Origin: an uncultured archaeon | GTDB lineage: Archaea > Aenigmatarchaeota > Aenigmatarchaeia > QMZP01 | DNA length: 39,645 nucleotides | NCBI GenBank assembly: GCA_964475515.1 | Contig: CAYYWW010000001.1 | Coordinates: 12,611-52,255, forward strand | Direction: 5' to 3' | Shown: in pieces, positions 5,553 through 39,175 of the stretch | Layout: every line of letters starts with the position of its first letter | Numbering within the stretch: position 1 is the stretch's first letter | Notes under the pieces: generated by a model | What the model was told of the DNA's origin: nothing | The model's input: the letters and a program-made list of their open reading frames with translations, nothing else | Databases searched by the model: none | Translations under genes and position numbers: made by a program

Positions 5553-7193
5553 ATGACAAATGGACAGTTAGGCGGACAGCCTGTACTGATATTGCCAGAA
5601 GGCGCTATAAGGATGAGGGGTAAAGATGTGCTTAGAGCCAACATTGCCGCTGCAAAGGCTGTTGCCGATGCTGTCAAGACAACACTGGGTCCAAAAGGCA
5701 TGGATAAGATGTTAGTAGACAGCTTAGGTGACATTACCATAACAAATGATGGAGCAACTATTTTAGAGGAAATGCAAATAGAGAATCCAGCAGCAAAAAT
5801 GATGGTTGAAGTTGCAAAAACTCAGGATAAAATGGTCGGTGATGGTACAACAACAGCAACAGTTCTTGCAGGTGAATTACTCAAAAGAGCAGAAGATTTG
5901 CTTGAACAGGAAATACATCCAACAGTCATTACAAAAGGTTACAGGATAGCGAAGAAGAAAGCATTAGAAGTGCTTGATAAAATAGCAATAAATGTTGAAA
6001 TAACTAACGAAGATGTCTTGAAAAAAATAGCTCAAACAGCAATGACTGGCAAATCAGCGGAAAAGGCCAGTGAGGAACTTGCAAATATTGCCGTAGAAGC
6101 AATTAAAAAAGTTGCAAGAGTTGATGGGAATAGCGTGAGCGTGGATGTAGATGACATAAAAATAGAGAAAAAAGAGGGTGGGTCAATGAATGATACAGAA
6201 CTAGTAAATGGTATAGTGATTGACAAGGAGGTCGTTCACTCAGATATGCCAAAAACTGTGAAAAACGCCAAAATAGTTTTACTTGATTGTGCGTTGGAGA
6301 TCAAAGAACTTGAAGGTGATGCAAAGATAAATATAGACACACCGGAAAAAATGCAGGCATTTCTCGAGAGTCAGGAAAAATCATTAAAGGACATGGTAGA
6401 CAAAATAGTTAAGACAGGTGCTAATGTAGTGTTTTGTCAGAAAGGTATAGACGATGTTGCGCAGTATTACCTGGCTAAAAACGGTATACTAGCAGCAAGG
6501 AGGGTTAAAAAAAGTGATATGGAGAAACTTGCAAAGGCAACAGGAGCAAAAATAGTCAGTAATTTAAATGACTTAAATAAGAACGATCTTGGATCTGCAG
6601 GTTCTGTTAAAGAAAAGAAAATATCAGATGAAGAGATGATATTTGTTGAGGAGTGTAAGAAACCAAAAGCTGTGACGATCCTTGTAAGAGGCGGTACAGA
6701 GCATATAGTTGATGAGGTTGAAAGAGGCGTTGAAGACGCAGTAAAAGGTTTAGCAGCTGCTCTAGAGCTTGGAAAAATAGTAGCAGGTGGTGGAGCGTGT
6801 GAAATAGAAGTTGCAAAAGAGCTTAGAAAATACGCAGAGACGCTCAAAGGACGCGAACAGCTTGCAGTAAAGGCATTTGCAGATGCGGTAGAAGTAATAC
6901 CAAGAAGTTTAGCAGAAAACTCAGGACTTGACCCCATTGATGTGCTCGTTAGTTTGAGAGCAGAGCATGACAAAGGTAATGTACATCACGGGATTGACGT
7001 TTTTACAGGAAAATCTCAGGACATGGTAAAAACAGGTGTTGTAGAGCCTTTAAAAATTAAATTGCAGGCAGTGAAATCAGCAAGTGAGGCAGCAGAGATG
7101 ATACTGAGAATAGATGATATGATATCAGCAGCAAAGAGTGAGAAATCAGGACCAGGACCGTCGAGAGGTGGTCCAGGAATGGACGAATATTAG
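5553..7193 (+). CDS. ths: thermosome subunit (group II chaperonin)
   Basis: Motifs [35 protein letters not shown] and a C-terminal GGPGMDEY tail. GAGGTGA Shine-Dalgarno motif lies 5 nt before the ATG at 5553; the ORF-track GTG at 5544 sits inside that motif. Confidence 0.95.
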
Positions 7194-9636: not shown

Positions 9637-11388
9637 ATGTCAGAACTTGTTCCTCGTCCAATAAGTGTACAAAGGATAATAAGAAGATTTAGAAGGGCAA
9701 TTGTTTCAAAAACAAGGGAAAAGGAAGAGAGTTTAGTGACCAAAGGTATAGCAATACCAGTAGCGTTCCCGTACCCACCCGGAGCATTTAAGGAGAAAGA
9801 AAAAAAAGAAGAACCTAAAAAAATAGAGGGTATAGACATAACCACTGAAGGTAGATTCTTTAGATATAAAAGAAAGAGAGATGTGGAAACGGATATAGTA
9901 AACATAAACATAAAATACCCGCTAATTCCGGAAAAACCTAAAAGAGGGGAGCAAATCTATGCTTACGCTAACATAAGATATGATGAGAAAACAAAAAATT
10001 TAGTATACTACTTGATAGAGCCGCCTTTAACAAGAGGGGATATTAATCTTATCGAGGATATAAAAAGGGATTTGGAGGAAAGACTGGATATAGACATAAC
10101 AAAACTGGGCGCTGTTGAAACAGAAGAAATATTAATAGAAGAAATAGAAAACTCTCTCCGAAACATTGGTGTTGAAATAAGTGAATCGAAAAAACGGACA
10201 ATAATATATTATATAAAGAGAGACGCGATGGGCCTTGGAAAAATAGAAGCATTAATGAGAGATCCAAACATAGAAGATATAAGCTGTGACGGTGTTGGTA
10301 TCTATATATATGTATATTACAGAGACCCAAGGATAGGTTCTGTTAAAACCAATATAAAATTTGACACCCAGGATGAACTTGATTCTTTTATAGTAAAGCT
10401 GGCACAGAAATGTAATAAAACCGTATCAATAGCAGAGCCCTTGTTGGATGGGACGTTACCAGATGGTAGCAGAGTCCAAGCAACGTTGGGTAGTGATATC
10501 GCTAGAAGAGGTAGTAATTTTACCATACGAAAATTTACTAAAAATCCGCTAACTCCAACGCATATGTTAAAGTTTAATACATTAAATTCTCTGCAGTTGG
10601 CTTATTTATGGCTTGCTGTAGAGCATGGAAAATCGATTTTGATATCGGGCGGTACAGCTACAGGTAAAACTACTTTATTAAATGTGCTTTCATTATTTAT
10701 ACGTCCAAATCTTAAAGTTGTTAGTATAGAAGATACGTCCGAAATACAGCTACCATTGGAGCACTGGATACCTCATGTTGCCAGATCACCACTATCAATT
10801 AAAGGTAAGACCGGTGAAGTAACGCTGTTTGACCTTCTTAAAGCAAGTTTAAGGCAAAGACCAGATTACATAATTGTTGGTGAGGTTAGGGGTAAAGAAG
10901 CGTTTGTCTTGTTCCAGCAAATGGCTACAGGGCACCCATCACTTGCAACAATACACGCAGCAACAGTACCTCAGTTGATAGATAGGTTGATAACACCTCC
11001 CATATCATTGCCTCCTAGATTACTTGAAAATATAGATATAATTATATTTCTCTCACGTACCCGGATAAGAGGTGAAGTCGTAAGAAGAGCGTCTAAAATA
11101 TTGGAAGTTGTTGGTATTGAAAATGAAAAACCGATCACAAGAACTATCTTTGAATGGAATCCTTCAACGGATAAATTTGAAAAAAGAGAGCCTTCAGTTG
11201 TTCTCAAAAAGATAGCGGAATTGGCAGGTCTGAAAGAAGATGAAGTAATAGGGGAATTGTTTAGAAGAAAAAAAATCATAGAATGGATGTTGGAGCATAA
11301 CATATACGATTATCGTCAAGTAGCAAAAATAATTCATACGTATTATACAGATCCTGAAAGGCTTATGGACTATATTACGAGCGTATAA
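9637..11388 (+). CDS. type IV pilus/archaellum-family secretion ATPase (FlaI/PilB/GspE type)
   Basis: Walker A GGTATGKTT, IEDTSEIQL, PDYIIVGEVRGKEA, ATGHPSLATIHA. Archaeal-type N-terminal domain (YAYANIRYDEKTKNLVYYLIEPPL). Confidence 0.9.
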   Translation: MSELVPRPISVQRIIRRFRRAIVSKTREKEESLVTKGIAIPVAFPYPPGAFKEKEKKEEPKKIEGIDITTEGRFFRYKRKRDVETDIVNINIKYPLIPEKPKRGEQIYAYANIRYDEKTKNLVYYLIEPPLTRGDINLIEDIKRDLEERLDIDITKLGAVETEEILIEEIENSLRNIGVEISESKKRTIIYYIKRDAMGLGKIEALMRDPNIEDISCDGVGIYIYVYYRDPRIGSVKTNIKFDTQDELDSFIVKLAQKCNKTVSIAEPLLDGTLPDGSRVQATLGSDIARRGSNFTIRKFTKNPLTPTHMLKFNTLNSLQLAYLWLAVEHGKSILISGGTATGKTTLLNVLSLFIRPNLKVVSIEDTSEIQLPLEHWIPHVARSPLSIKGKTGEVTLFDLLKASLRQRPDYIIVGEVRGKEAFVLFQQMATGHPSLATIHAATVPQLIDRLITPPISLPPRLLENIDIIIFLSRTRIRGEVVRRASKILEVVGIENEKPITRTIFEWNPSTDKFEKREPSVVLKKIAELAGLKEDEVIGELFRRKKIIEWMLEHNIYDYRQVAKIIHTYYTDPERLMDYITSV

Positions 11389-17541: not shown

Positions 17542-17835
17542 ATGGACAATTTTTTTCCTTTAATATGGATAAAAAGTAAAACTATAATTACATTTCGGGT
17601 GATATCTTTGGTGTGTAGAGTTTGTGACAGATGTGGAAAAAACTCACAAGACGTCGTTCTTGTGGAAAACTTACCTGTATATCGTCCAGTAATTGATGAA
17701 AAAGGAAGAGAAACACTCGAATATGTTGGTTTAGACACATATCTCTGTCAGAAATGCATAGAAGAATACAGATCGGACAATTTCAGATTAAGTAGCACGG
17801 CATTAAATATGGCGACGGGTTATGATATCGCTTAA
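17542..17835 (+). CDS. small zinc-ribbon protein (CxxCxxC ... CxxC); start uncertain
   Basis: CRVCDRCGK ... CQKC. The hydrophobic first 20 codons may not be translated: in-frame GTGs at 17599 and 17611, and a TATA-like ATATTTAAAT at about 17521. The 3' end overlaps the next ATG. Confidence 0.45.
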   Translation: MDNFFPLIWIKSKTIITFRVISLVCRVCDRCGKNSQDVVLVENLPVYRPVIDEKGRETLEYVGLDTYLCQKCIEEYRSDNFRLSSTALNMATGYDIA

Positions 17836-18814
17836 ATCAACAAAAAACAGACATCTTCTTTTAAAGACACCCGAGATTCGCGCTGTTGCAAGGATAGAAG
17901 CTGCGCTCCTGAAGGGAGCTAGAAAATATTTCGAGTATAACAACTTCCACGAGGTTATTGTTCCATCAATAACGAAAGCTACTGGATCGTGTGAAAATAT
18001 TGATACTCTTTTCGAAACAAGCTTTTTCGGAAGAACAGGATATCTCAGGCAAACAGGACAACTCTATCTAGAATCATTGATACCAACGTTAGGAAATGTT
18101 TATTGTATAGGTCCCAGTTTTAGGGCAGAGCCAGATGTAGATAATAGGCATTTAACTGAATTTACACTAGTTGAGATGGAATTTCCTGGTGATTTTGATA
18201 TGTTACTTGGCCACATAGAAAACATCATACATTCCATGATAAGAAATGTGTTAAGTAAGTGCAAAAAGGATCTTGAATTTTTAGGTGTTGATTTAAAACG
18301 TCTTGAAGAAGTGAGACCTCCCTTCAAAAAAGTGACATATACAGAAGCAGTTGAAATGCTTTCTGAAGACGGTGTTGCGTGGGGGGATGACCTAAAGAGT
18401 CACCATGAGAAGAAGCTAGTTGAACACTTTGGTGGGAAACCGTTGTTCTTAACACATTTTCCCATAGAAATAAAGTTTTTCAACATGAAGAGAAATCCAG
18501 AAAATCCGAAAATAGTCAATAGTGCGGATCTTCTTCTTCCGTTTTCCGGTGAAGCGGTAGGGGCTGCAGAAAGAGAATATGAATATGAGGAAGTTCTGGA
18601 AAGACTTAAGAATTCGTACATGCTGAAACAACTTGAAAACAGAGGGGGGTCAATTGAAGATTTTAAGTGGTATCTTGATTTCTTGAAAGAACATGGTAAC
18701 GTACCACACTCCGGATGCGGTATTGGACTGAATAGAGTTACCCAGTTTGTACTTGGAATAGATGACATAAGAGCCTCAACGGTTTTCCCTCAAAACAGGG
18801 AAAGTCTGTTATGA
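17822..18814 (+). CDS. AsnRS-type class II aaRS catalytic core without anticodon-binding domain (archaeal asparagine synthetase A-like paralogue)
   Basis: Motif 1 region HEVIVPSITKATG; FFGRTGYLRQTGQLYLE; motif 2 GPSFRAEPDVDNRHLTEFTLVEMEF; motif 3 PHSGCGIGLNRVTQFVLG. Only 330 aa and starts at the core, with no OB fold. Confidence 0.8.
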   Translation: MISLKSTKNRHLLLKTPEIRAVARIEAALLKGARKYFEYNNFHEVIVPSITKATGSCENIDTLFETSFFGRTGYLRQTGQLYLESLIPTLGNVYCIGPSFRAEPDVDNRHLTEFTLVEMEFPGDFDMLLGHIENIIHSMIRNVLSKCKKDLEFLGVDLKRLEEVRPPFKKVTYTEAVEMLSEDGVAWGDDLKSHHEKKLVEHFGGKPLFLTHFPIEIKFFNMKRNPENPKIVNSADLLLPFSGEAVGAAEREYEYEEVLERLKNSYMLKQLENRGGSIEDFKWYLDFLKEHGNVPHSGCGIGLNRVTQFVLGIDDIRASTVFPQNRESLL

Positions 18815-19791
18815 TTACAGAAGCTCAGATATTCATAACCAGAAAGTGTAACAATAGGTGTAAATATTGTGCTCTCACACAAAAAAATTTACCGGAAAGG
18901 GAGTTAACAACAGAGGAGTGGAAAAGGACTTTTACTATCATGGATAATATTGGAATTAAAACGCTCAAAATTTTGGGCGGTGAACCCACTGTTCTTGAGG
19001 ATCTTCCAGAAATTCTGAGATTTTTAAATGAGGAAACAGACATAGATTACGCTATTCTTTCTAATTCAATTATCCCACGTGAAAAATTGGAAAGATTGGT
19101 AGAAGTTGGCCTCAAAGGTTATTTCGCTAGTGTGGATAACATTGATGGTCTTAAGAGTGTGGACAGTTATTCAACAAGAAAATCACATCTGGCAATTGAT
19201 GTTTTAGATTTTCTGAAACGAAGAGGTGTTAAGCTGCTGGGTGCTAATACTGTTATTCATAGAGGAAATTTAAGAAATCTTCCTATAATATTGGAATTTC
19301 TAACAGGGATGGGGATATGGATGAATATATGTGCTATGCATTATGGAAATGAAGATATAAATTGGATATTTAGATCTGAGTATTCTGAATTGGCGTTGAG
19401 ACCAAAAGATACTCAATTAGTGAAAGAAATTATGGAAAAACTAAAGGAAATGAAACATGCAGGTTACATGCTCGCTTGTCCAGATTCTTATTTGGATGGT
19501 TTTCCTGAGTATGGTATTGGTTTAAATTGGAAATGTGGAGAGTTTAGTCAATTAAGAGTAGATGCAGATGGTTCTCTTTTATTATGTCCCGACCTGAGAG
19601 GTGAGATGGGTAGGTTTAATATTCTTGAAATTGGTGAGAATGATCAATACTTAAGTGAAATTGAGGAGGCATGGTACAAAGACCCTGAAAGGGCAAGGTG
19701 TCCTGGATGTTATTGGAGTTCTATGTACAGGGCAGAAGTTAATAAAAAAATAGGCGGAGAATTCCAATTCTCAAAAGAAATTAAAACATAA
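18811..19791 (+). CDS. radical SAM enzyme with C-terminal auxiliary-cysteine (twitch/SPASM-like) region
   Basis: CNNRCKYC (CxxxCxxC), ILGGEPTV, then WKCGEF..VDADGSLLLCPD and RCPGCYW. ATGA overlap with the upstream gene. Confidence 0.85.
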   Translation: MITEAQIFITRKCNNRCKYCALTQKNLPERELTTEEWKRTFTIMDNIGIKTLKILGGEPTVLEDLPEILRFLNEETDIDYAILSNSIIPREKLERLVEVGLKGYFASVDNIDGLKSVDSYSTRKSHLAIDVLDFLKRRGVKLLGANTVIHRGNLRNLPIILEFLTGMGIWMNICAMHYGNEDINWIFRSEYSELALRPKDTQLVKEIMEKLKEMKHAGYMLACPDSYLDGFPEYGIGLNWKCGEFSQLRVDADGSLLLCPDLRGEMGRFNILEIGENDQYLSEIEEAWYKDPERARCPGCYWSSMYRAEVNKKIGGEFQFSKEIKT

Positions 19792-21000: not shown

Positions 21001-21903
21001 ATGATTCTTGTTACGGGAGGTAGTGGTTTTATAGGTTCAAAGCTTGTTCACTCTCTTATCAAAAGAGGTTATGATGTAAAGATTCTTACACGTGATCCTC
21101 GGAAAATAAAAATTAAAGATGTGGAATCTGTAAAGGGTGATATAACCAGGAAAGAAACTTTAAAAAATGCCGTAAAAGATGTAGATGTTGTAGTACATCT
21201 TGCAGGTCTTGTTTCGTATACAAAACCAGAAGAGGTGCTATACAGGATTAACGTAGATGGCACAAAAAATTTGCTTGATGTGTCTAAAAACGTCGATAAA
21301 TTTATTTTTTCATCGAGTGTTTCTGTTTTTGGTCCCATAAAAGGCGTTGCAGATGAAAATTATCCCTGTAAACCAATGAGCTACTATGGAAAGTCCAAAC
21401 TTGAAGCTGAAAAGTTAATTCATGACTCTGGGATTAAGCATGTGATTTTGAGAATAGCACCAGTATATGGAGCAGGAAGTCCTTATTGGCTGAAAAATTT
21501 GAAAATGCTTGATAGTGGATTTCCTATACCAAACACAAAGAGCTTAACACATATCGTGCACATATCAGATGTTGTGAATGCGTTTATTTTGAGTATAAAA
21601 AGGGGTGAAGGCATTTATAACATAGCTGATAAAAAACCCATACCATTCGTTAGATTAGCTGAAAAAATAGTAAAACTTTTAGGTAAAAAACCAAAGAAGC
21701 TCCCGCTTTGGCTCGTTTATCTGATATCCGTATTTATGGGGAAGAAAAAATATATAGATGTCTTGACTATGAATAGAAATTACAGTATAAAAAAAGCTCA
21801 AAAAGAATTAGGATATAAACCAAAAGCTGATATGGACAAAGAACTTAAAAAAATGATAGATTGGTATAAATCTTTGAGGGATAAGCATGTTCAATATTCT
21901 TAA
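21001..21903 (+). CDS. NAD-dependent epimerase/dehydratase (extended SDR)
   Basis: ILVTGGSGFIGS Rossmann motif and YGKSK (YxxxK) catalytic motif. Confidence 0.8.
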   Translation: MILVTGGSGFIGSKLVHSLIKRGYDVKILTRDPRKIKIKDVESVKGDITRKETLKNAVKDVDVVVHLAGLVSYTKPEEVLYRINVDGTKNLLDVSKNVDKFIFSSSVSVFGPIKGVADENYPCKPMSYYGKSKLEAEKLIHDSGIKHVILRIAPVYGAGSPYWLKNLKMLDSGFPIPNTKSLTHIVHISDVVNAFILSIKRGEGIYNIADKKPIPFVRLAEKIVKLLGKKPKKLPLWLVYLISVFMGKKKYIDVLTMNRNYSIKKAQKELGYKPKADMDKELKKMIDWYKSLRDKHVQYS

Positions 21904-31881: not shown

Positions 31882-33420
31882 ATGTTCCTTAAAGCACTTG
31901 AGCTTCATCTTGAGGCAGAGAAACCAATAGTAATACTCAACAAATCAGACGCAGAAGAGCTTGATGTGAGGCCTTTGGATAGAGTTGAAATAGTTTTCAA
32001 AAATAAAAAGTTGGTGGGCACTGTAAATATAGCGAAAAAATTTGTCAAGCCTGGTTATATAGGTCTATATGAAACCATATCGAAGCAAATGAGACTGAAA
32101 ACAGGTGACAGAGTGAAAGTATCAAGAACGGAACCGCCAACATCTATCGAATTTATAAAGAAAAAACTTAACGGCTCCCAACTTACAGGAAAAGAGATAA
32201 ATCAGATAATAAAGGATGTTGTGAGCAAAAAACTTTCTGATGTAGAACTTACAACATTTGTTGTCAGCTTGCATAATCATGGAATGACCATGGATGAGGT
32301 TGCTTCTCTTTCAGAAGCAATGGCGTTTACTGGTGATATACTAGATTTAGGTAAAGAGGAAATATATGATAAACATTCTATAGGTGGTTGTCCTGGTGAT
32401 AAAACGAGTATGATACTTGTTCCAACGGTTGCTGCAGCAGGTCTCACAATACCTAAAACATCGAGTAGAAGTATAACATCGCCTGCTGGCACTGCGGATA
32501 AAATGGAGTGTTTGTCTCCTGTTGACCTTAGTGTTGAAGAAATAAAAAAAGTAGTTAAAAAAACGAACGGTTGTCTTGTTTGGGGCGGTGCTGTAAATTT
32601 AGCGCCAGCTGACGACATGTTTATAGAAATTGAACATCCATTATCAATTGATCCTTTATTACTTCCGTCAGTGATGTCAAAGAAAAAAGCTGTTGGATGT
32701 AAATATCTGGTAATAGATATACCAACTGGTAAGAATGCTAAAATAAAAAGTGTTCAAGAAGCTGAAAAACTTGCATCGAAATTTATAGAGCTTGGGAAAA
32801 GACTCGATATTAAGGTGTCATGTTTGTCAACCTATGGTGAACAACCTATAGGTCATAATATAGGCCCTGCATTGGAAGCTAGAGAAGCGCTAGAAACATT
32901 AATGAATAAAAAGAACCCTAAGGACCTTTTAGATAAAGTCTGTGATCTTGTAGGCAACTTGTTTAGATTTCGTGGGATAAAAGAGCCTGAAAAGAAAGCG
33001 TTTCAAATAATAAAGTCGGGAAAGGCCGAAAAGAAATTTAGAGAAATTATAGAGGCCCAGGGCGGTAACAGAAAGGTAAAACCAGAGGACATCCCGGTTG
33101 GCGATAAAAAAGTTAAAATACATTCAGCTAGAGGTGGATTTGTCTTATGGATAAACAACAGTGATATAATTAAACTGGCAAGAACTGCCGGCGCACCCAA
33201 AGATAAAGGTGCTGGTATTGTAATACACAAAAAGATAGGTGACAAAGTTAAAAAAGGTGATATTCTCTTTGAAATATACGCTGAAAAAGCATACAAGTTG
33301 AACCGTGCACTTAAACTTGCAGAAGAGATGGATGTATATGGAATAGGAAAAAAATATGAGATGATGCTTGCAAAAATACCAAAGGAAAAAAACAATTCTT
33401 ATTTTGTATTGGAAAGGTAA
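31882..33420 (+). CDS. deoA: AMP phosphorylase (archaeal thymidine-phosphorylase-family DeoA)
   Basis: Archaeal-specific N-terminal domain (ILNKSDAEELDVRPLDRVEI). DKHSIGGCPGDKTS, SSRSITSPAGTADKME, WGGAVNLAPADD. 512 aa. Confidence 0.85.
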   Translation: MFLKALELHLEAEKPIVILNKSDAEELDVRPLDRVEIVFKNKKLVGTVNIAKKFVKPGYIGLYETISKQMRLKTGDRVKVSRTEPPTSIEFIKKKLNGSQLTGKEINQIIKDVVSKKLSDVELTTFVVSLHNHGMTMDEVASLSEAMAFTGDILDLGKEEIYDKHSIGGCPGDKTSMILVPTVAAAGLTIPKTSSRSITSPAGTADKMECLSPVDLSVEEIKKVVKKTNGCLVWGGAVNLAPADDMFIEIEHPLSIDPLLLPSVMSKKKAVGCKYLVIDIPTGKNAKIKSVQEAEKLASKFIELGKRLDIKVSCLSTYGEQPIGHNIGPALEAREALETLMNKKNPKDLLDKVCDLVGNLFRFRGIKEPEKKAFQIIKSGKAEKKFREIIEAQGGNRKVKPEDIPVGDKKVKIHSARGGFVLWINNSDIIKLARTAGAPKDKGAGIVIHKKIGDKVKKGDILFEIYAEKAYKLNRALKLAEEMDVYGIGKKYEMMLAKIPKEKNNSYFVLER

Positions 33421-35307: not shown

Positions 35308-35504
35308 AACTCACCACCCAACCTTAAAATATTGTTAAATATTGAATAAATATTGCTTATAAAACATTTATGATAGTTTAAATTTAGAGAATTAAGACAA
35401 GGTTCAACGTACTGTCCGACATCCACCCTTCATCTTAACCACTTTATTATTTAAAGGATATTAAATTTATAAACTTATATTTTTATACAACACTTCAATA
35501 ATAT

Positions 35505-35595
35505 AGCCCCGTGGTGTAGTGGTCAAGCATGCGAGGCTCTGGTGGTATAAAGCCGGTGAAACCTCGCGACCGCGGTTCGAATCCGCGCGGGGCTA
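35505..35595 (+). tRNA. tRNA-Gln(CUG) with one canonical (37/38) 18-nt intron
   Basis: AGCCCCG-TG-GTGT-AGTGGTCAA-GCAT-G-CGAGG-CTCTGG[TGGTATAAAGCCGGTGAA]A-CCTCG-CGAC-CGCGG-TTCGAAT-CCGCG-CGGGGCT-A. The A1:U72 pair is typical of archaeal tRNA-Gln. Intron 35543-35560 pairs AGCC with GGCT of the anticodon region. A T6 run follows. Confidence 0.9.
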
Positions 35596-35601
35596 TTTTT
35601 T
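35596..35601 (+). terminator. oligo-T tract directly after tRNA-Gln
   Basis: TTTTTT starts immediately after the discriminator base; archaeal terminators are typically oligo-T. Confidence 0.4.
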
Positions 35602-36231: not shown

Positions 36232-36363
36232 ATGAAATATGACGATGGGAGCCGTGATGTATATGAAGTCAGAGCAGAAAGAAAACCATACCCACTGTGC
36301 CCACCGGATAAAGGGAGTGGAACTGAAGGTGAGTATTTAAAGATGAGAGAGATAGAAGACTAG
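36232..36363 (+). CDS. candidate 43-codon small ORF with strong Shine-Dalgarno motif
   Basis: GAGGGGGTGA lies 5 nt upstream of the ATG. Product MKYDDGSRDVYEVRAERKPYPLCPPDKGSGTEGEYLKMREIED. The stop overlaps the convergent gatE stop by 4 nt. No homology is recognisable by eye. Confidence 0.3.
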   Translation: MKYDDGSRDVYEVRAERKPYPLCPPDKGSGTEGEYLKMREIED

Positions 36364-37814
36364 CTCTTCATCTCTTCTCTTAATATTTTTATGACAAGAG
36401 CACCGGAAGCTCTTCCCCTTATTTCTTTCATTATTAAACCCATGAATATTTTCTCCGCATTATATTGTTTCAAAATATCACTTTTCTCAGAAATAATTTT
36501 TTTCACTATTTTTCTAACTTCTTCCTCATCCATAACATCTTTGTCACTCGCTAATTCTTCTATTTTTTTAGATGGATTTTCGACCATTTGTTTCATTAAG
36601 TCCATTATACCTTCTTTTGGGAGTGGTTTTTTCCTGAGAAACTGAAACATTTCTACAAGTCTTTTCTCTGTAATTTTTTCTACTTCAACTCCCTCGGATT
36701 TTAATTGTTTCATAAGCGAAGTCAACACAATGGCAACTATTTTTGGATCAAATATTTTAGATAATCTCTCAAATGTATCAAGTTTATCTGATTTCCTCAA
36801 TTGTTTCACAATATCTTCTGACACGCCAAAACTTTTTACTCTTTTTTCTTTTTCAGAAATAAGTTCAGGTAAATTATCTTTTAGCTTCTTTATATATTCT
36901 CTATCAATGCGTATTGGCGGTAAATCTGTTTCTGGATAGAGCCTGCTGGAGCCCGGTAGAGGTCTTAAAAATGATGTACTACCAGAGGATAATGCTTTTC
37001 TCACTTCCTTTGGAACTTTTTTTCCTTTCTCGACCATTAATTTTTGTCTTATAATTTCTTTTTCTATTATTTGAGGTATCATACTAAGGCTTTGTACCCC
37101 TTTTATCTCTACCCTAGAACCACCTTTAATAGAGACGTTTAAGTCCTGTCTTATTGTTCCAAGACCCTTCTTAACCTTTCTCGTGGATTTCAAAATCATA
37201 CCTATTTTTTCTGCCACTTCTTTGGCTTGTTGTGGGTTTGATATAGATGAATCTGTACCTATTTCAACGAGTGGTATACCAAGTCTGTCTAAACCAAAAA
37301 CAGCTTTATTTCTCTCTTTTTTTATTATTTGTGCAGAATCTTCCTCTAGACATACATTTGTTATTCCTACTTTTCCAGAAGATGTTTCCAAAAAACCATT
37401 GAGACCCACTATAACAGTTCTCTGGAAACCCGATGTATTGCTTCCATCTATAACTGTTTTTCTCATAACATGTAACTCATCTGGGATATCACAATTAAGC
37501 ATAAGCGCTATTTGCAAAGCAATTTCTAATGCTTCTTGATTCACGGGGTGAGGAGGCTCAGAATCCATTTCTACCGTACATGTTTCCATTGGGTAAACAT
37601 TGTAATGGAATTCCTTGTTTTTCAGCGCCTCGAAAGCTGCCGCTGCGTCAATATCTCCTAGTTCACCGGCAACAGGTCTGAGTCGCCTCTTCAAAACCAT
37701 CTTTACATTCTCTTTGGAAAGTCTCGAGTAACAATTACAGAAAAGTTTCTTCTGTGTATCCAATTGCTGATGAATTTCTATTCCACATTTCAATCCAAGT
37801 TTTTTGTAATCCAT
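36360..37814 (-). CDS. gatE: Glu-tRNA(Gln) amidotransferase subunit E
   Basis: GLKCGIEIHQQL, FCNC, MRKTVIDGSNTSGFQRT, LGIPLVEI, and a C-terminal YqeY-like tail. Lies immediately downstream of gatD. Confidence 0.9.
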   Translation of the reverse strand: MDYKKLGLKCGIEIHQQLDTQKKLFCNCYSRLSKENVKMVLKRRLRPVAGELGDIDAAAAFEALKNKEFHYNVYPMETCTVEMDSEPPHPVNQEALEIALQIALMLNCDIPDELHVMRKTVIDGSNTSGFQRTVIVGLNGFLETSSGKVGITNVCLEEDSAQIIKKERNKAVFGLDRLGIPLVEIGTDSSISNPQQAKEVAEKIGMILKSTRKVKKGLGTIRQDLNVSIKGGSRVEIKGVQSLSMIPQIIEKEIIRQKLMVEKGKKVPKEVRKALSSGSTSFLRPLPGSSRLYPETDLPPIRIDREYIKKLKDNLPELISEKEKRVKSFGVSEDIVKQLRKSDKLDTFERLSKIFDPKIVAIVLTSLMKQLKSEGVEVEKITEKRLVEMFQFLRKKPLPKEGIMDLMKQMVENPSKKIEELASDKDVMDEEEVRKIVKKIISEKSDILKQYNAEKIFMGLIMKEIRGRASGALVIKILREEMKS

Positions 37815-37822
37815 TGTTTCAC

Positions 37823-39175
37823 CTAATACAAAAATGTTTCAGGTAATGTTCTCTCTGTTATTTCATGAGAATAATTGGTAAGCATCATTTCTTTGACTTT
37901 TTTCATATTCTTTGTGTGTCCAAGAACCCAACCTAATTTTACATATGCAACTTCTGACAACATATCTTCACCTGGTATAGCACCTGCTTCATGATATAAG
38001 ATTCTGAGGTTTGTATAAACATTCGGGTTTACCCTTCCGTAAATTGTTTGTGAAGTTACAACAAATGGAATTCCAGAATTTGCAGCGTTTTTAATTGTTT
38101 CAATCCAGGATTTTTTTGCAAATGTTGGTACATGACCTAAACCCAAACCCTCAACGACAAAACCCTTGTAACCCTTTTTTATAAGAAAGTCTATAATGCC
38201 TGGTTCACTACCTGGATATGCTTTCAAGAGAGCCACTTTTGGTTCAAATTTTACATCTGCCTTTACCTTTCCTTTGCCACGCTTTTTGAAACTTTCGTTC
38301 AAGATCTCCATTTTACCCTCAGGCCACACCTTTGCTAATGGAAGTTCATTTATAGGCCTGAAAGCATCTCTTCTAATTGTATTCATCTTTCTGCAATGAG
38401 TCCCACGGATTAATAAACAATAATCATCATTCATTGAACCATGCATGCATATCCCAACTTCCGCTATATTACTTATTGCAGCATAAGAAGAACATATAAT
38501 ATTCATTCCTGCATCACTGCTACCTCTGTCGCTTGATTTTTGGGCACCTGTTAGTACAACAGGTTTGGATAAATCCCTAAGCATAAAAGAAAGAGCAGCA
38601 GCTGTAAAGTGAAGAGTATCAGTTCCATGTGTTATTATCACACCGTTGATATCTGAGTTAAGGTGTTTAGCGGCTTCTTTTGCTATAGTCTGCCAGTCAG
38701 TATAATCCATATCTTCGCTTGCTTTGGTGAAAGGTCTAGATATCTTTTTAATATTTACTATATCCTTAAGTTCTGGAACATTGAAAAGAAATTCTCTAGG
38801 ATCCATGAGCATGTAAACACCGCCTGTCCTATAGTCTACCCTAGAGGCAATGGTTCCTCCTGTTGCAATCAGAGATATAGGTGGTTTTTTTCTGTCAAAC
38901 TTTAATTTCAGAAGTTCTTTTCTGACCTTTCCTATTTCCTTGGGAACACTTTTCTTTTCATCATTCTTTTTCATCTCCACATTACTATCAAATTCTATAC
39001 CAATGTTGTAACCAGAGTCCAACTTTATAATCAAACAGTTAGGATCCCCTAATTCGGGTCTGGGCATCAATATTCCTTCATACGATCTATTATTTTTATT
39101 TATACTTACCCTGTCGCCTATTTGTATTCCCTTCTTTTTGAGAAATACTTGGATTTTTTTAGAGTACATAGACAA
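37823..39175 (-). CDS. gatD: Glu-tRNA(Gln) amidotransferase subunit D
   Basis: N-terminal GatD-specific domain, then asparaginase-type motifs ATGGTIAS and ITHGTDTL. Confidence 0.9.
   Translation of the reverse strand: MSMYSKKIQVFLKKKGIQIGDRVSINKNNRSYEGILMPRPELGDPNCLIIKLDSGYNIGIEFDSNVEMKKNDEKKSVPKEIGKVRKELLKLKFDRKKPPISLIATGGTIASRVDYRTGGVYMLMDPREFLFNVPELKDIVNIKKISRPFTKASEDMDYTDWQTIAKEAAKHLNSDINGVIITHGTDTLHFTAAALSFMLRDLSKPVVLTGAQKSSDRGSSDAGMNIICSSYAAISNIAEVGICMHGSMNDDYCLLIRGTHCRKMNTIRRDAFRPINELPLAKVWPEGKMEILNESFKKRGKGKVKADVKFEPKVALLKAYPGSEPGIIDFLIKKGYKGFVVEGLGLGHVPTFAKKSWIETIKNAANSGIPFVVTSQTIYGRVNPNVYTNLRILYHEAGAIPGEDMLSEVAYVKLGWVLGHTKNMKKVKEMMLTNYSHEITERTLPETFLY

Follow-up and report, generated by a model that had tools for sequence, protein, structure and literature searches.

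A 39,645-nucleotide stretch of contig CAYYWW010000001.1, from the assembly GCA_964475515.1 of an uncultured aenigmatarchaeote and referred to here as the window, contains three plus-strand open reading frames (ORFs) chained by overlaps. ORF2 (17822-18814, 330 aa) is the catalytic core of an asparaginyl-tRNA synthetase (AsnRS) type class II enzyme without an anticodon-binding domain, and ORF3 (18811-19791, 326 aa) is a radical S-adenosylmethionine (SAM) protein. ORF1 (17542-17835, 97 aa) is cysteine-rich (C25xxC28xxC31...C69xxC72) and restricted to a narrow clade. With moderate confidence, we favor a lineage-specific operon that pairs a tRNA-independent adenylating enzyme derived from AsnRS with a twitch-type radical-SAM enzyme, both acting on pyrimidine-related small molecules, ORF1 being a young orphan. 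ORF2 belongs to a large family of AsnRS-like paralogs whose members recur beside genes of de novo pyrimidine synthesis, while relatives of ORF3 recur beside genes of pyrimidine salvage. The interest of the locus lies mainly in the ORF2 family and not in a three-gene cassette, as the first-pass annotation had framed it.

The ORF2 family

The match to PF00152 covers residues 7-325 of ORF2 (E = 4e-53). ORF2 aligns to residues 121-428 of the AsnRS of Pyrococcus horikoshii (PDB 1x54, E = 2e-60), with which it shares the class II fold, motifs 1-3 and about 45% core identity, and it matches positions 118-447 of the 451 in the AsnRS model. Its start corresponds to about residue 113-121 of AsnRS, and the frame upstream is closed (335 codons are open). 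Because the match covers the AsnRS core only, the N-terminal anticodon-binding (OB-fold) domain is absent. The class II motifs are present as FFGRTGYLRQTGQLYLE, GPSFRAE..NRHLTEFTLVEMEF and PHSGCGIGLNRV. As in AsnRS, ORF2 has 'QLYLE' rather than the 'QLYKQ' of aspartyl-tRNA synthetase (AspRS), and it keeps Glu in 'hLExE' and Arg in 'xxRE'. ORF2 falls below the cutoff of both AsnRS equivalog models, scoring 265 bits versus 414 (NF003037) and 245 versus 343 (TIGR00457). Archaeal AsnA models, with cutoffs of 309-389 bits, give at most 147 (NF005052, cutoff 368), the archaeal asparagine synthetase AS-AR of Pyrococcus abyssi (PDB 3p8t) gives 38 bits (E = 9e-9), and a PDB search at E <= 1e-5 returned no match to E. 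coli-type AsnA. By these scores AsnRS is what ORF2 most resembles, with characterized AsnA far off; the tight clustering with AsnA-type enzymes that the first-pass annotation had allowed for is not what we find.

An alignment of 81 sequences, comprising ORF2 relatives from 80 genome loci and a few earlier contig loci, resolves three groups. Thirteen sequences of 411-465 aa are true AsnRS, with CEG(G/T)xTLF, FRAEKSKTRRHL, GGSQRE and GFGxGxER. ORF2 falls in a truncated family of 50 sequences (about 320-396 aa) with CENIDTLF, FRAEPxxDxRHL, GAAERE and GCGIGLNR; D61 and L63 of CENIDTLF are each kept in 48/50 and the other six positions in 50/50. The third group has 18 members, mostly of about 500 aa and fused to an MGS-like domain, with CEN(I/V)DTLF and GRDEEEEDERHL. 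Unlike AsnRS, ORF2 thus reads CENID for CEG(G/T)x, GAAE for GGSQ and GCGIGLNR for GFGxGxER, and in the family the AsnRS-invariant W115 and GGSQ motif are replaced.

In class IIb synthetases the motif-2 loop contacts the acceptor end of the tRNA. The net charge of this loop, the six residues after FRAE, is +3.9 in AsnRS (n = 13) but falls to -0.6 in the truncated family and, in the MGS-fused group, to -2.9. It is neutral to acidic in 68/68 family members (PDVDNR in ORF2 itself) and lies between +3 and +4 in 13/13 AsnRS. Since the anticodon domain is missing and the motif-2 loop is not basic, ORF2 is very unlikely to charge tRNA, which bears out the first-pass view of it as a stand-alone class IIb core.

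All three groups keep ten residues without exception (R101, E103, R109, H110, E118, E120, D236, E244, R251 and R305), and the pocket has the AsnRS-type Leu at the position of the carboxylate-binding Lys of AspRS. Because the adenylation residues are invariant and the pocket is of the AsnRS type, ORF2 is most likely an active adenylate-forming enzyme for an Asn- or Asp-shaped substrate. The family represents paralogs that split from AsnRS. By analogy with AsnA-type enzymes, ORF2 would bind ATP and a carboxylate of this shape, form the acyl-adenylate and pass the acyl group to a nitrogen nucleophile instead of tRNA. The most plausible chemical analogy is AS-AR, in which carboxyl adenylation is likewise followed by an N-nucleophile; AS-AR and the PRK06462 models are tRNA-independent, Asp/AsnRS-derived cores without an anticodon-binding domain. 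Unlike them, the ORF2 family has its own invariant signature, a pyrimidine-gene neighborhood and the MGS fusion. HisZ and EpmA/PoxA are also stand-alone class II cores that lack anticodon recognition and are embedded in another pathway, but EpmA models score only about 36 bits on ORF2.

The family is large, with 977 matches, and the 120 listed are 62-70% identical to ORF2 and come from Bathyarchaeia and DPANN archaea. It reaches Patescibacteria, Saccharibacteria and Sericytochromatia at 42-50% identity and extends to Polyangiaceae. Members are named 'asparagine--tRNA ligase' or 'amino acid--tRNA ligase-related protein' in their sources.

We clustered the neighboring genes of retrieved loci (L-numbers label those carrying relatives) without bias and then assigned them by Pfam, NCBIfam and PDB. 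Pyrimidine genes are found in 21/66 ORF2-superfamily loci and in 0/42 background loci, which consist of true AsnRS loci and ORF3-family loci (Fisher p = 7e-6). In the archaeal locus L019 the family gene is followed after a 4-nt gap by PyrD and then by a convergent CTP synthase (PyrG). The order is GatB, PyrB (TIGR00670 above cutoff), family gene in L041 and GatB, PyrD-like gene, family gene in L057, L059 and L061. PyrK, PyrD, PyrF and PyrE stand beside the family gene in L040, L045, L048, L050 and L058, and PyrF lies two genes from it in the Bathyarchaeia loci L009 and L032. The relatives of about 500 aa carry a C-terminal MGS-like domain (PF02142 above cutoff), a fold also found in CarB, where it forms the allosteric domain. 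Of the 18 MGS-fused loci, 7 have PyrD as the direct neighbor. One of them, L081, reads ArgG-MGS, an AtzC/cytosine-deaminase-like amidohydrolase, AsnRS-like-MGS, PyrD, PyrE, PyrF. Because the family is tied to pyr genes in several phyla, most tightly to PyrD, and is fused to the MGS-like domain, the substrate or product of ORF2 is probably a pyrimidine-pathway intermediate or a nitrogen donor. A literature search, in which most subscription journals were not included, brought up no account of the family, of its link to pyrimidine genes or of its fusion to the MGS-like domain.

Two other ideas about the family were discarded. The additional length of the relatives of about 500 aa had suggested an N-terminal extension; the extension is C-terminal and MGS-like. 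The presence of PyrB, D, K, E, F and G but not C among the neighbors had suggested an ATP-dependent replacement for dihydroorotase (PyrC); however, a gene two positions from the family gene in L061 (7828-8880) is a type II dihydroorotase, with 411 bits to 4lfy.

The same neighborhoods hold further unusual architectures. ArgG with the same kind of C-terminal MGS-like domain is encoded near AsnRS-like-MGS genes at L079:4272-5879, L081:3278-4945 and L095:4096-5715, so that two aspartate- and ATP-using enzymes have a common appended domain. In the Sericytochromatia locus L040, PurH appears split in two: its MGS-like IMP cyclohydrolase and its AICAR transformylase portions are separate ORFs (6166-6852 and 10063-11175) on either side of pyrK-pyrD-pyrF-pyrE. 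Directly after the AsnRS-like-MGS gene of L070, 7426-9279 encodes a 617-aa DHO_dh (PyrD-like) protein with a C-terminal region that weakly resembles a phosphoribosyltransferase. Several of the PyrD-like partners are divergent: L057:5081-5962 and L019:1172-2155 score 129-160 bits versus an NCBIfam cutoff of 269, and L077:7497-8561 gives 61 bits to DHO_dh in a Pfam scan only. Those of L019 and of the loci from Candidate Phyla Radiation (CPR) bacteria may not be ordinary dihydroorotate dehydrogenases.

The ORF3 family

ORF3 matches PF04055 with E = 3e-20 (73 bits, cutoff 29.5) and contains CNNRCKYC, WKCGEF..DGSLLLCPD and RCPGCYW. It reaches the cutoff of no curated radical-SAM family, the best being MoaA (76.5 bits versus 284). 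PF06463 (Mob_synth_C) has no match in ORF3, and PF13186 (SPASM) has none in ORF3 or its close family. The family numbers only about 35 clusters (E < 1e-50). In an alignment of 35 members the CX3CX2C motif (C13x3C17x2C20 in ORF3) is invariant or near-invariant, and four C-terminal cysteines are invariant, as C242-x11-G254-x4-C259 and C297-x2-C300. Because this pattern fits CX9-15GX4C and supplies ligands for only one auxiliary cluster, ORF3 is of the twitch type and not a seven-cysteine SPASM protein. It is, by motif, a twitch-type radical-SAM enzyme with one predicted auxiliary [4Fe-4S] cluster; the first-pass annotation had read the additional C-terminal cysteines as twitch/SPASM-type, and the invariance of CX11GX4C...CX2C across the family agrees with this.

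The AlphaFold2 model of ORF3 is confident (predicted local distance difference test, pLDDT, 87.6). A Foldseek search with the full-length model retrieved BlsE, a cytosylglucuronate decarboxylase, as the best match (template modeling scores 0.70/0.69), then viperins, MoaA, PqqE and SuiB; SkfB is also among the matches. With nucleoside- and nucleotide-acting enzymes among the best of these, the model does not specifically indicate a peptide substrate. BlsE (7vob), MoaA (1tv7) and viperin (6q2p) share with ORF3 the partial TIM barrel, CX3CX2C and a C-terminal motif of the CX9-15GX4C type. Sequence identity to them is 15-22%, and unlike them ORF3 has auxiliary cysteines in a spacing of their own and belongs to a family with a conserved upp neighbor.

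This gene, upp, encodes uracil phosphoribosyltransferase. It lies immediately downstream of the ORF3-type radical-SAM gene in 5/29 loci and within 2.3 kb in a sixth (L013, L097, L117, L098 by BLAST, L015 in divergent form and L103 nearby), and TIGR01091 is above cutoff in the four best cases. The count of 6/29 compares with 0/79 other loci (p = 2e-4). In L106 and L116 an AtzC/cytosine-deaminase-like amidohydrolase gene is directly upstream and overlaps the start of the radical-SAM gene. Because the family lies directly upstream of uracil phosphoribosyltransferase, ORF3 probably produces or processes a pyrimidine base. It would cleave SAM reductively, and the resulting 5'-deoxyadenosyl radical would abstract hydrogen from a small substrate, the one auxiliary cluster serving in electron handling.

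Other genes also occur beside members of the family. In the bacterial branch, L129 (3438-4867) has ThiE- and ThiD-type genes just upstream of the radical-SAM gene, ThiD being hydroxymethylpyrimidine kinase, and T_hemolysin, AMP-ligase and SDR genes downstream of it, as in L014. The ORF directly upstream of the ORF3-type gene at L100:13-786 and L103:3833-4996 resembles MetK by eye only.

Conservation of the trio and other genes of the window

Read base by base, the ATG of ORF2 is 14 nt inside ORF1 (ggttATGAtatcgctTAA), such that the ORF1 stop region overlaps the ORF2 start at 17822-17835. The stop of ORF2 overlaps the start of ORF3 by 4 nt as ATGA at 18811-18814 (ctgttATGAtt), which suggests translational coupling of the two. 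The ORF list and the base-by-base reading thus confirm the three chained ORFs, both overlaps and all of the motifs first reported. The epimerase/ftsY overlap, reported with them as a sign that unrelated genes overlap in this genome too, is likewise real (21887-21903). ORF1 has a possible alternative GTG start at 17611. A scan for bacterial-type promoters and terminators gave counts at chance level and says little about an archaeal host.

Only L001-L006 and L011, all with an ORF2 of at least 93% identity, keep the trio; they are identical or near-identical contigs and one relative with identities of 93% for ORF2, 85% for ORF3 and 80% for ORF1. The next relatives, with ORF2 at 69%, 67% and 64% identity, have neither a radical-SAM gene nor ORF1. 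None of the 80 genome loci retrieved with ORF2 carries a relative of ORF1 or ORF3. Outside the narrow clade, 0 of about 66 ORF2-superfamily loci have an ORF1 or ORF3 neighbor, and 0/31 ORF3-family loci have a detectable homolog of ORF1, ORF2 or the upstream gene P282; a cut contig (L104) is the one exception. By this distribution the three genes are no conserved three-gene system but probably a lineage-specific operon, and the cassette proposed in the first-pass annotation does not survive the comparison: ORF1 has two relatives, and ORF2 relatives at 64-69% identity stand without ORF3.

The ORF2 and ORF3 families can still be connected at another level. Both have pyrimidine-related neighbors, de novo genes for ORF2 and salvage genes for ORF3. 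The AtzC/cytosine-deaminase-like amidohydrolase that flanks the ORF3-type gene in L106 and L116 also flanks AsnRS-like-MGS, adjacent to it in L081 and present in L079 and L095. At its 5' end L104 holds the final 80 codons of an MGS domain, with 55-60% identity to that of AsnRS-like-MGS and 38-46% to that of ArgG-MGS; about 375 nt after this fragment, on the same strand, is an ORF3-type radical-SAM gene (46% identical to ORF3). The two families thus probably co-occur once more, in L104. Taken together, the shared neighbors, the amidohydrolase and L104 are suggestive of a family-level connection, but not conclusive, because the upstream gene of L104 is cut by the contig end.

ORF1 is probably a real, fast-evolving gene. 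Only two relatives, at 98% and 80% identity, were found in a search of 5.8 billion protein clusters, and its CxxCxxC...CxxC motif is conserved. Against the 80%-identical relative (L011) the frame is open and 5/5 cysteines are kept. The substitutions fall 14/5/22 by codon position, a bias to position 3, and synonymous codon changes number 15 in frame versus 6 and 4 in the other frames. The ratio of synonymous to non-synonymous changes is only 15/19 for ORF1 versus 84/22 for ORF2; purifying selection on ORF1 is weak in this comparison. ORF1 reaches no Pfam or NCBIfam cutoff (best Pfam match 16.6 bits versus 21.3), is not an OB fold by motif, and gives an AlphaFold2 model (pLDDT 54) too poor for a fold search. 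It is absent from L007, whose ORF2 is 69% identical, and where it would stand there is a 188-bp spacer that is AT-rich and non-coding. We see in it a putative zinc-binding protein that is probably a young orphan, and no conserved substrate or carrier. A split AsnRS with ORF1 as its N-terminal domain was rejected, since ORF1 is an orphan absent from relatives and ORF2 lacks a basic motif-2 loop.

The only conserved neighbor of ORF2 in its own lineage is P282 (16651-17499, minus strand, 282 aa), which is transcribed divergently from it. The same divergent arrangement recurs beside ORF2 homologs in Aenigmatarchaeota-type loci (L007, L008, L011, L034, L056, L062 and L126), and in three Micrarchaeota loci (L022, L036 and L038) P282 is immediately downstream on the same strand. 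Its family has 154 clusters, all of about 270-290 aa. Residues 5-54 weakly match an ArsR-type winged helix-turn-helix (E = 0.011 to 1uly), and DUF7342 is matched below threshold; beyond the weak helix-turn-helix match no Pfam, NCBIfam or PDB family is recognized. P282 is probably a winged-helix regulator with a C-terminal domain of its own that has no recognizable family, and it could regulate the ORF2-type gene.

The window is archaeal by its intron-containing tRNA-Pro, PcrB/GGGPS, thermosome, Pus10, GatD and GatE genes, and ORF2, ORF3 and the upstream gene have their closest named relatives in metagenome-assembled genomes of Aenigmatarchaeota, so that by best hits the host is most likely a DPANN archaeon of this group. 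The tRNA-Pro(UGG) gene (35504-35596, plus strand) is 93 nt long, which implies the intron. GatE (36360-37814) and GatD (37823-39175) are adjacent on the minus strand; GatE has 484 aa versus about 620-630 in curated models, to which it aligns as two stretches, and the GatE-specific insertion is apparently missing. GatDE indicates a Gln-tRNA route, and an Asn-tRNA route is not visible within the window. About 12 kb from the locus, 31882-33420 (plus strand) encodes a 512-aa protein of the pyrimidine-nucleoside-phosphorylase family with an N-terminal CDC48_N-like domain, the architecture of archaeal AMP phosphorylase; it is a gene of nucleotide salvage.

Competing explanations and significance

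The preferred reading has ORF2 and ORF3 coupled translationally in this clade and probably drawing on a common pool of pyrimidine-related metabolites. Several observations weigh against it. The 39.6-kb window contains neither pyrimidine genes nor upp, and in the 30 archaeal loci closest to ORF2 the neighborhoods are heterogeneous, with pyr genes in 3/30. The locus counts are phylogenetically non-independent; by our estimate the pyr association covers at least five independent lineages and the upp association at least three. Canonical PyrB and PyrC co-occur with the ORF2 family and therefore leave no obvious missing step for it to fill; a particular reaction cannot be assigned to it. In its bacterial branch, the ORF3 family lies in unrelated acyl-ligase/SDR clusters. 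Finally, adjacency of ORF2 and ORF3 is confined to one narrow clade and to L104, a contig cut inside the upstream gene.

A bolder version, which we consider rather unlikely, makes ORF2 and ORF3 consecutive enzymes of an unrecognized branch of pyrimidine nucleotide metabolism. Dihydroorotate resembles an asparagine whose two nitrogens are bridged by a carbonyl, and the adenylation chemistry of ORF2 would make or process an asparagine-shaped pyrimidine precursor of this kind. Most lineages would pass the precursor to the flavoenzyme PyrD and then to PyrE and PyrF; here ORF3 would replace these with an oxidation independent of oxygen and flavin. Alternatively, a HemN-like oxidative decarboxylation would convert a dihydropyrimidine to uracil, from which upp would form UMP. 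On the sister enzymes, the MGS-like domain would then sense feedback at a committed step.

Plain asparagine synthesis is a serious rival to the pyrimidine reading and a real possibility. Here ORF2 would be an ammonia-dependent asparagine synthetase, carrying out the AsnA-type reaction on a new AsnRS-derived scaffold, ORF3 would be unrelated to it, and the overlaps would reflect genome compaction. Asp/AsnRS cores without the anticodon domain are established as asparagine synthetases in AS-AR, and the 62-70% identity between archaeal phyla among the matches listed is in keeping with a housekeeping role. The trio lacks synteny, unrelated genes such as epimerase and ftsY overlap in the window too, and GatB, PyrG and ArgG as neighbors can be read as nitrogen-donor metabolism of Asp and Asn. 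However, ORF2 scores far below every AsnA model and barely resembles AS-AR, and its pocket is AsnRS-like and not rearranged. An asparagine synthetase would not be expected to pair so closely with PyrD in operons or to be fused to an MGS-like domain, and the amidohydrolase common to both families, together with L104, links ORF2 to the ORF3 family. That ORF2 is instead a HisZ-like, non-catalytic subunit that senses a ligand and regulates a pyrimidine enzyme such as PyrD seems improbable to us. HisZ, a paralog of HisRS that regulates HisG, is an established precedent, and both the tight adjacency to PyrD and the fusion of one branch to a typical allosteric module would suit such a role. Unlike a purely regulatory paralog, though, ORF2 keeps every adenylation residue; the class II residues for ATP, Mg and the adenylate are invariant in 68 members, which argues for catalysis, and the window has no PyrD.

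The remaining readings concern translation and protein modification. We would hardly expect ORF2 to be the AsnRS of the cell in minimal or split form, with anticodon recognition supplied in trans by, for example, ORF1 or P282. Its closest characterized relatives are AsnRS, ORF1 and ORF2 together approximate the length of one (97 and 330 aa), the window has GatDE but no GatCAB, and some sources label family members 'asparagine--tRNA ligase'. Opposed to this are the non-basic motif-2 loop of all 68 members, the replacement of W115 and GGSQ, an ORF1 that lacks an OB-fold motif and is missing from relatives, and the occurrence of the family in bacteria with large genomes (Sericytochromatia and Polyangiaceae). 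The first-pass annotation had proposed that the ligase and the radical-SAM enzyme act together on a small protein, a peptide or a metabolite. The metabolite branch of this proposal lives on in the pyrimidine neighbors, the amidohydrolase and L104. Joint modification of ORF1 or another peptide or protein by ORF2 and a SPASM/twitch-type ORF3 is, by comparison with the evidence now at hand, improbable. The chained overlaps, an intact adenylation site without tRNA-binding features, the SPASM/twitch-type cysteine motif, the presence of PqqE, SuiB and SkfB among the structural matches and an ORF1 that looks like a genuine gene under weak constraint would all fit it. Yet ORF1 is confined to its clade and absent where ORF2 is still 69% identical, and no small cysteine-rich or precursor-like gene recurs beside loci of either family. 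ORF3 has four auxiliary cysteines and not the seven of SPASM maturases, with no PF13186 match, and the neighbors of both families are metabolic. The structural neighbors of ORF3, which include nucleoside and nucleotide enzymes, also fail to favor a peptide or protein substrate.

Paralogs of aminoacyl-tRNA synthetases that work outside translation, such as AsnA, HisZ, EpmA and the amino-acid:carrier-protein ligases, are few, and each has revealed new biochemistry. Judged by its sequences, the ORF2 family appears to be a large uncharacterized addition to those with non-tRNA roles, with hundreds of members in Bathyarchaeia, DPANN archaea, CPR bacteria and Sericytochromatia. Their routine mis-annotation as 'asparagine--tRNA ligase' inflates the apparent completeness of translation in reduced genomes. 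The pairing with PyrD and the CarB-type allosteric fold suggest an unrecognized step or control point in pyrimidine synthesis, which would sit in just those organisms that are believed to have an incomplete nucleotide metabolism. The ORF3 family would in turn add a radical-SAM step to uracil salvage.

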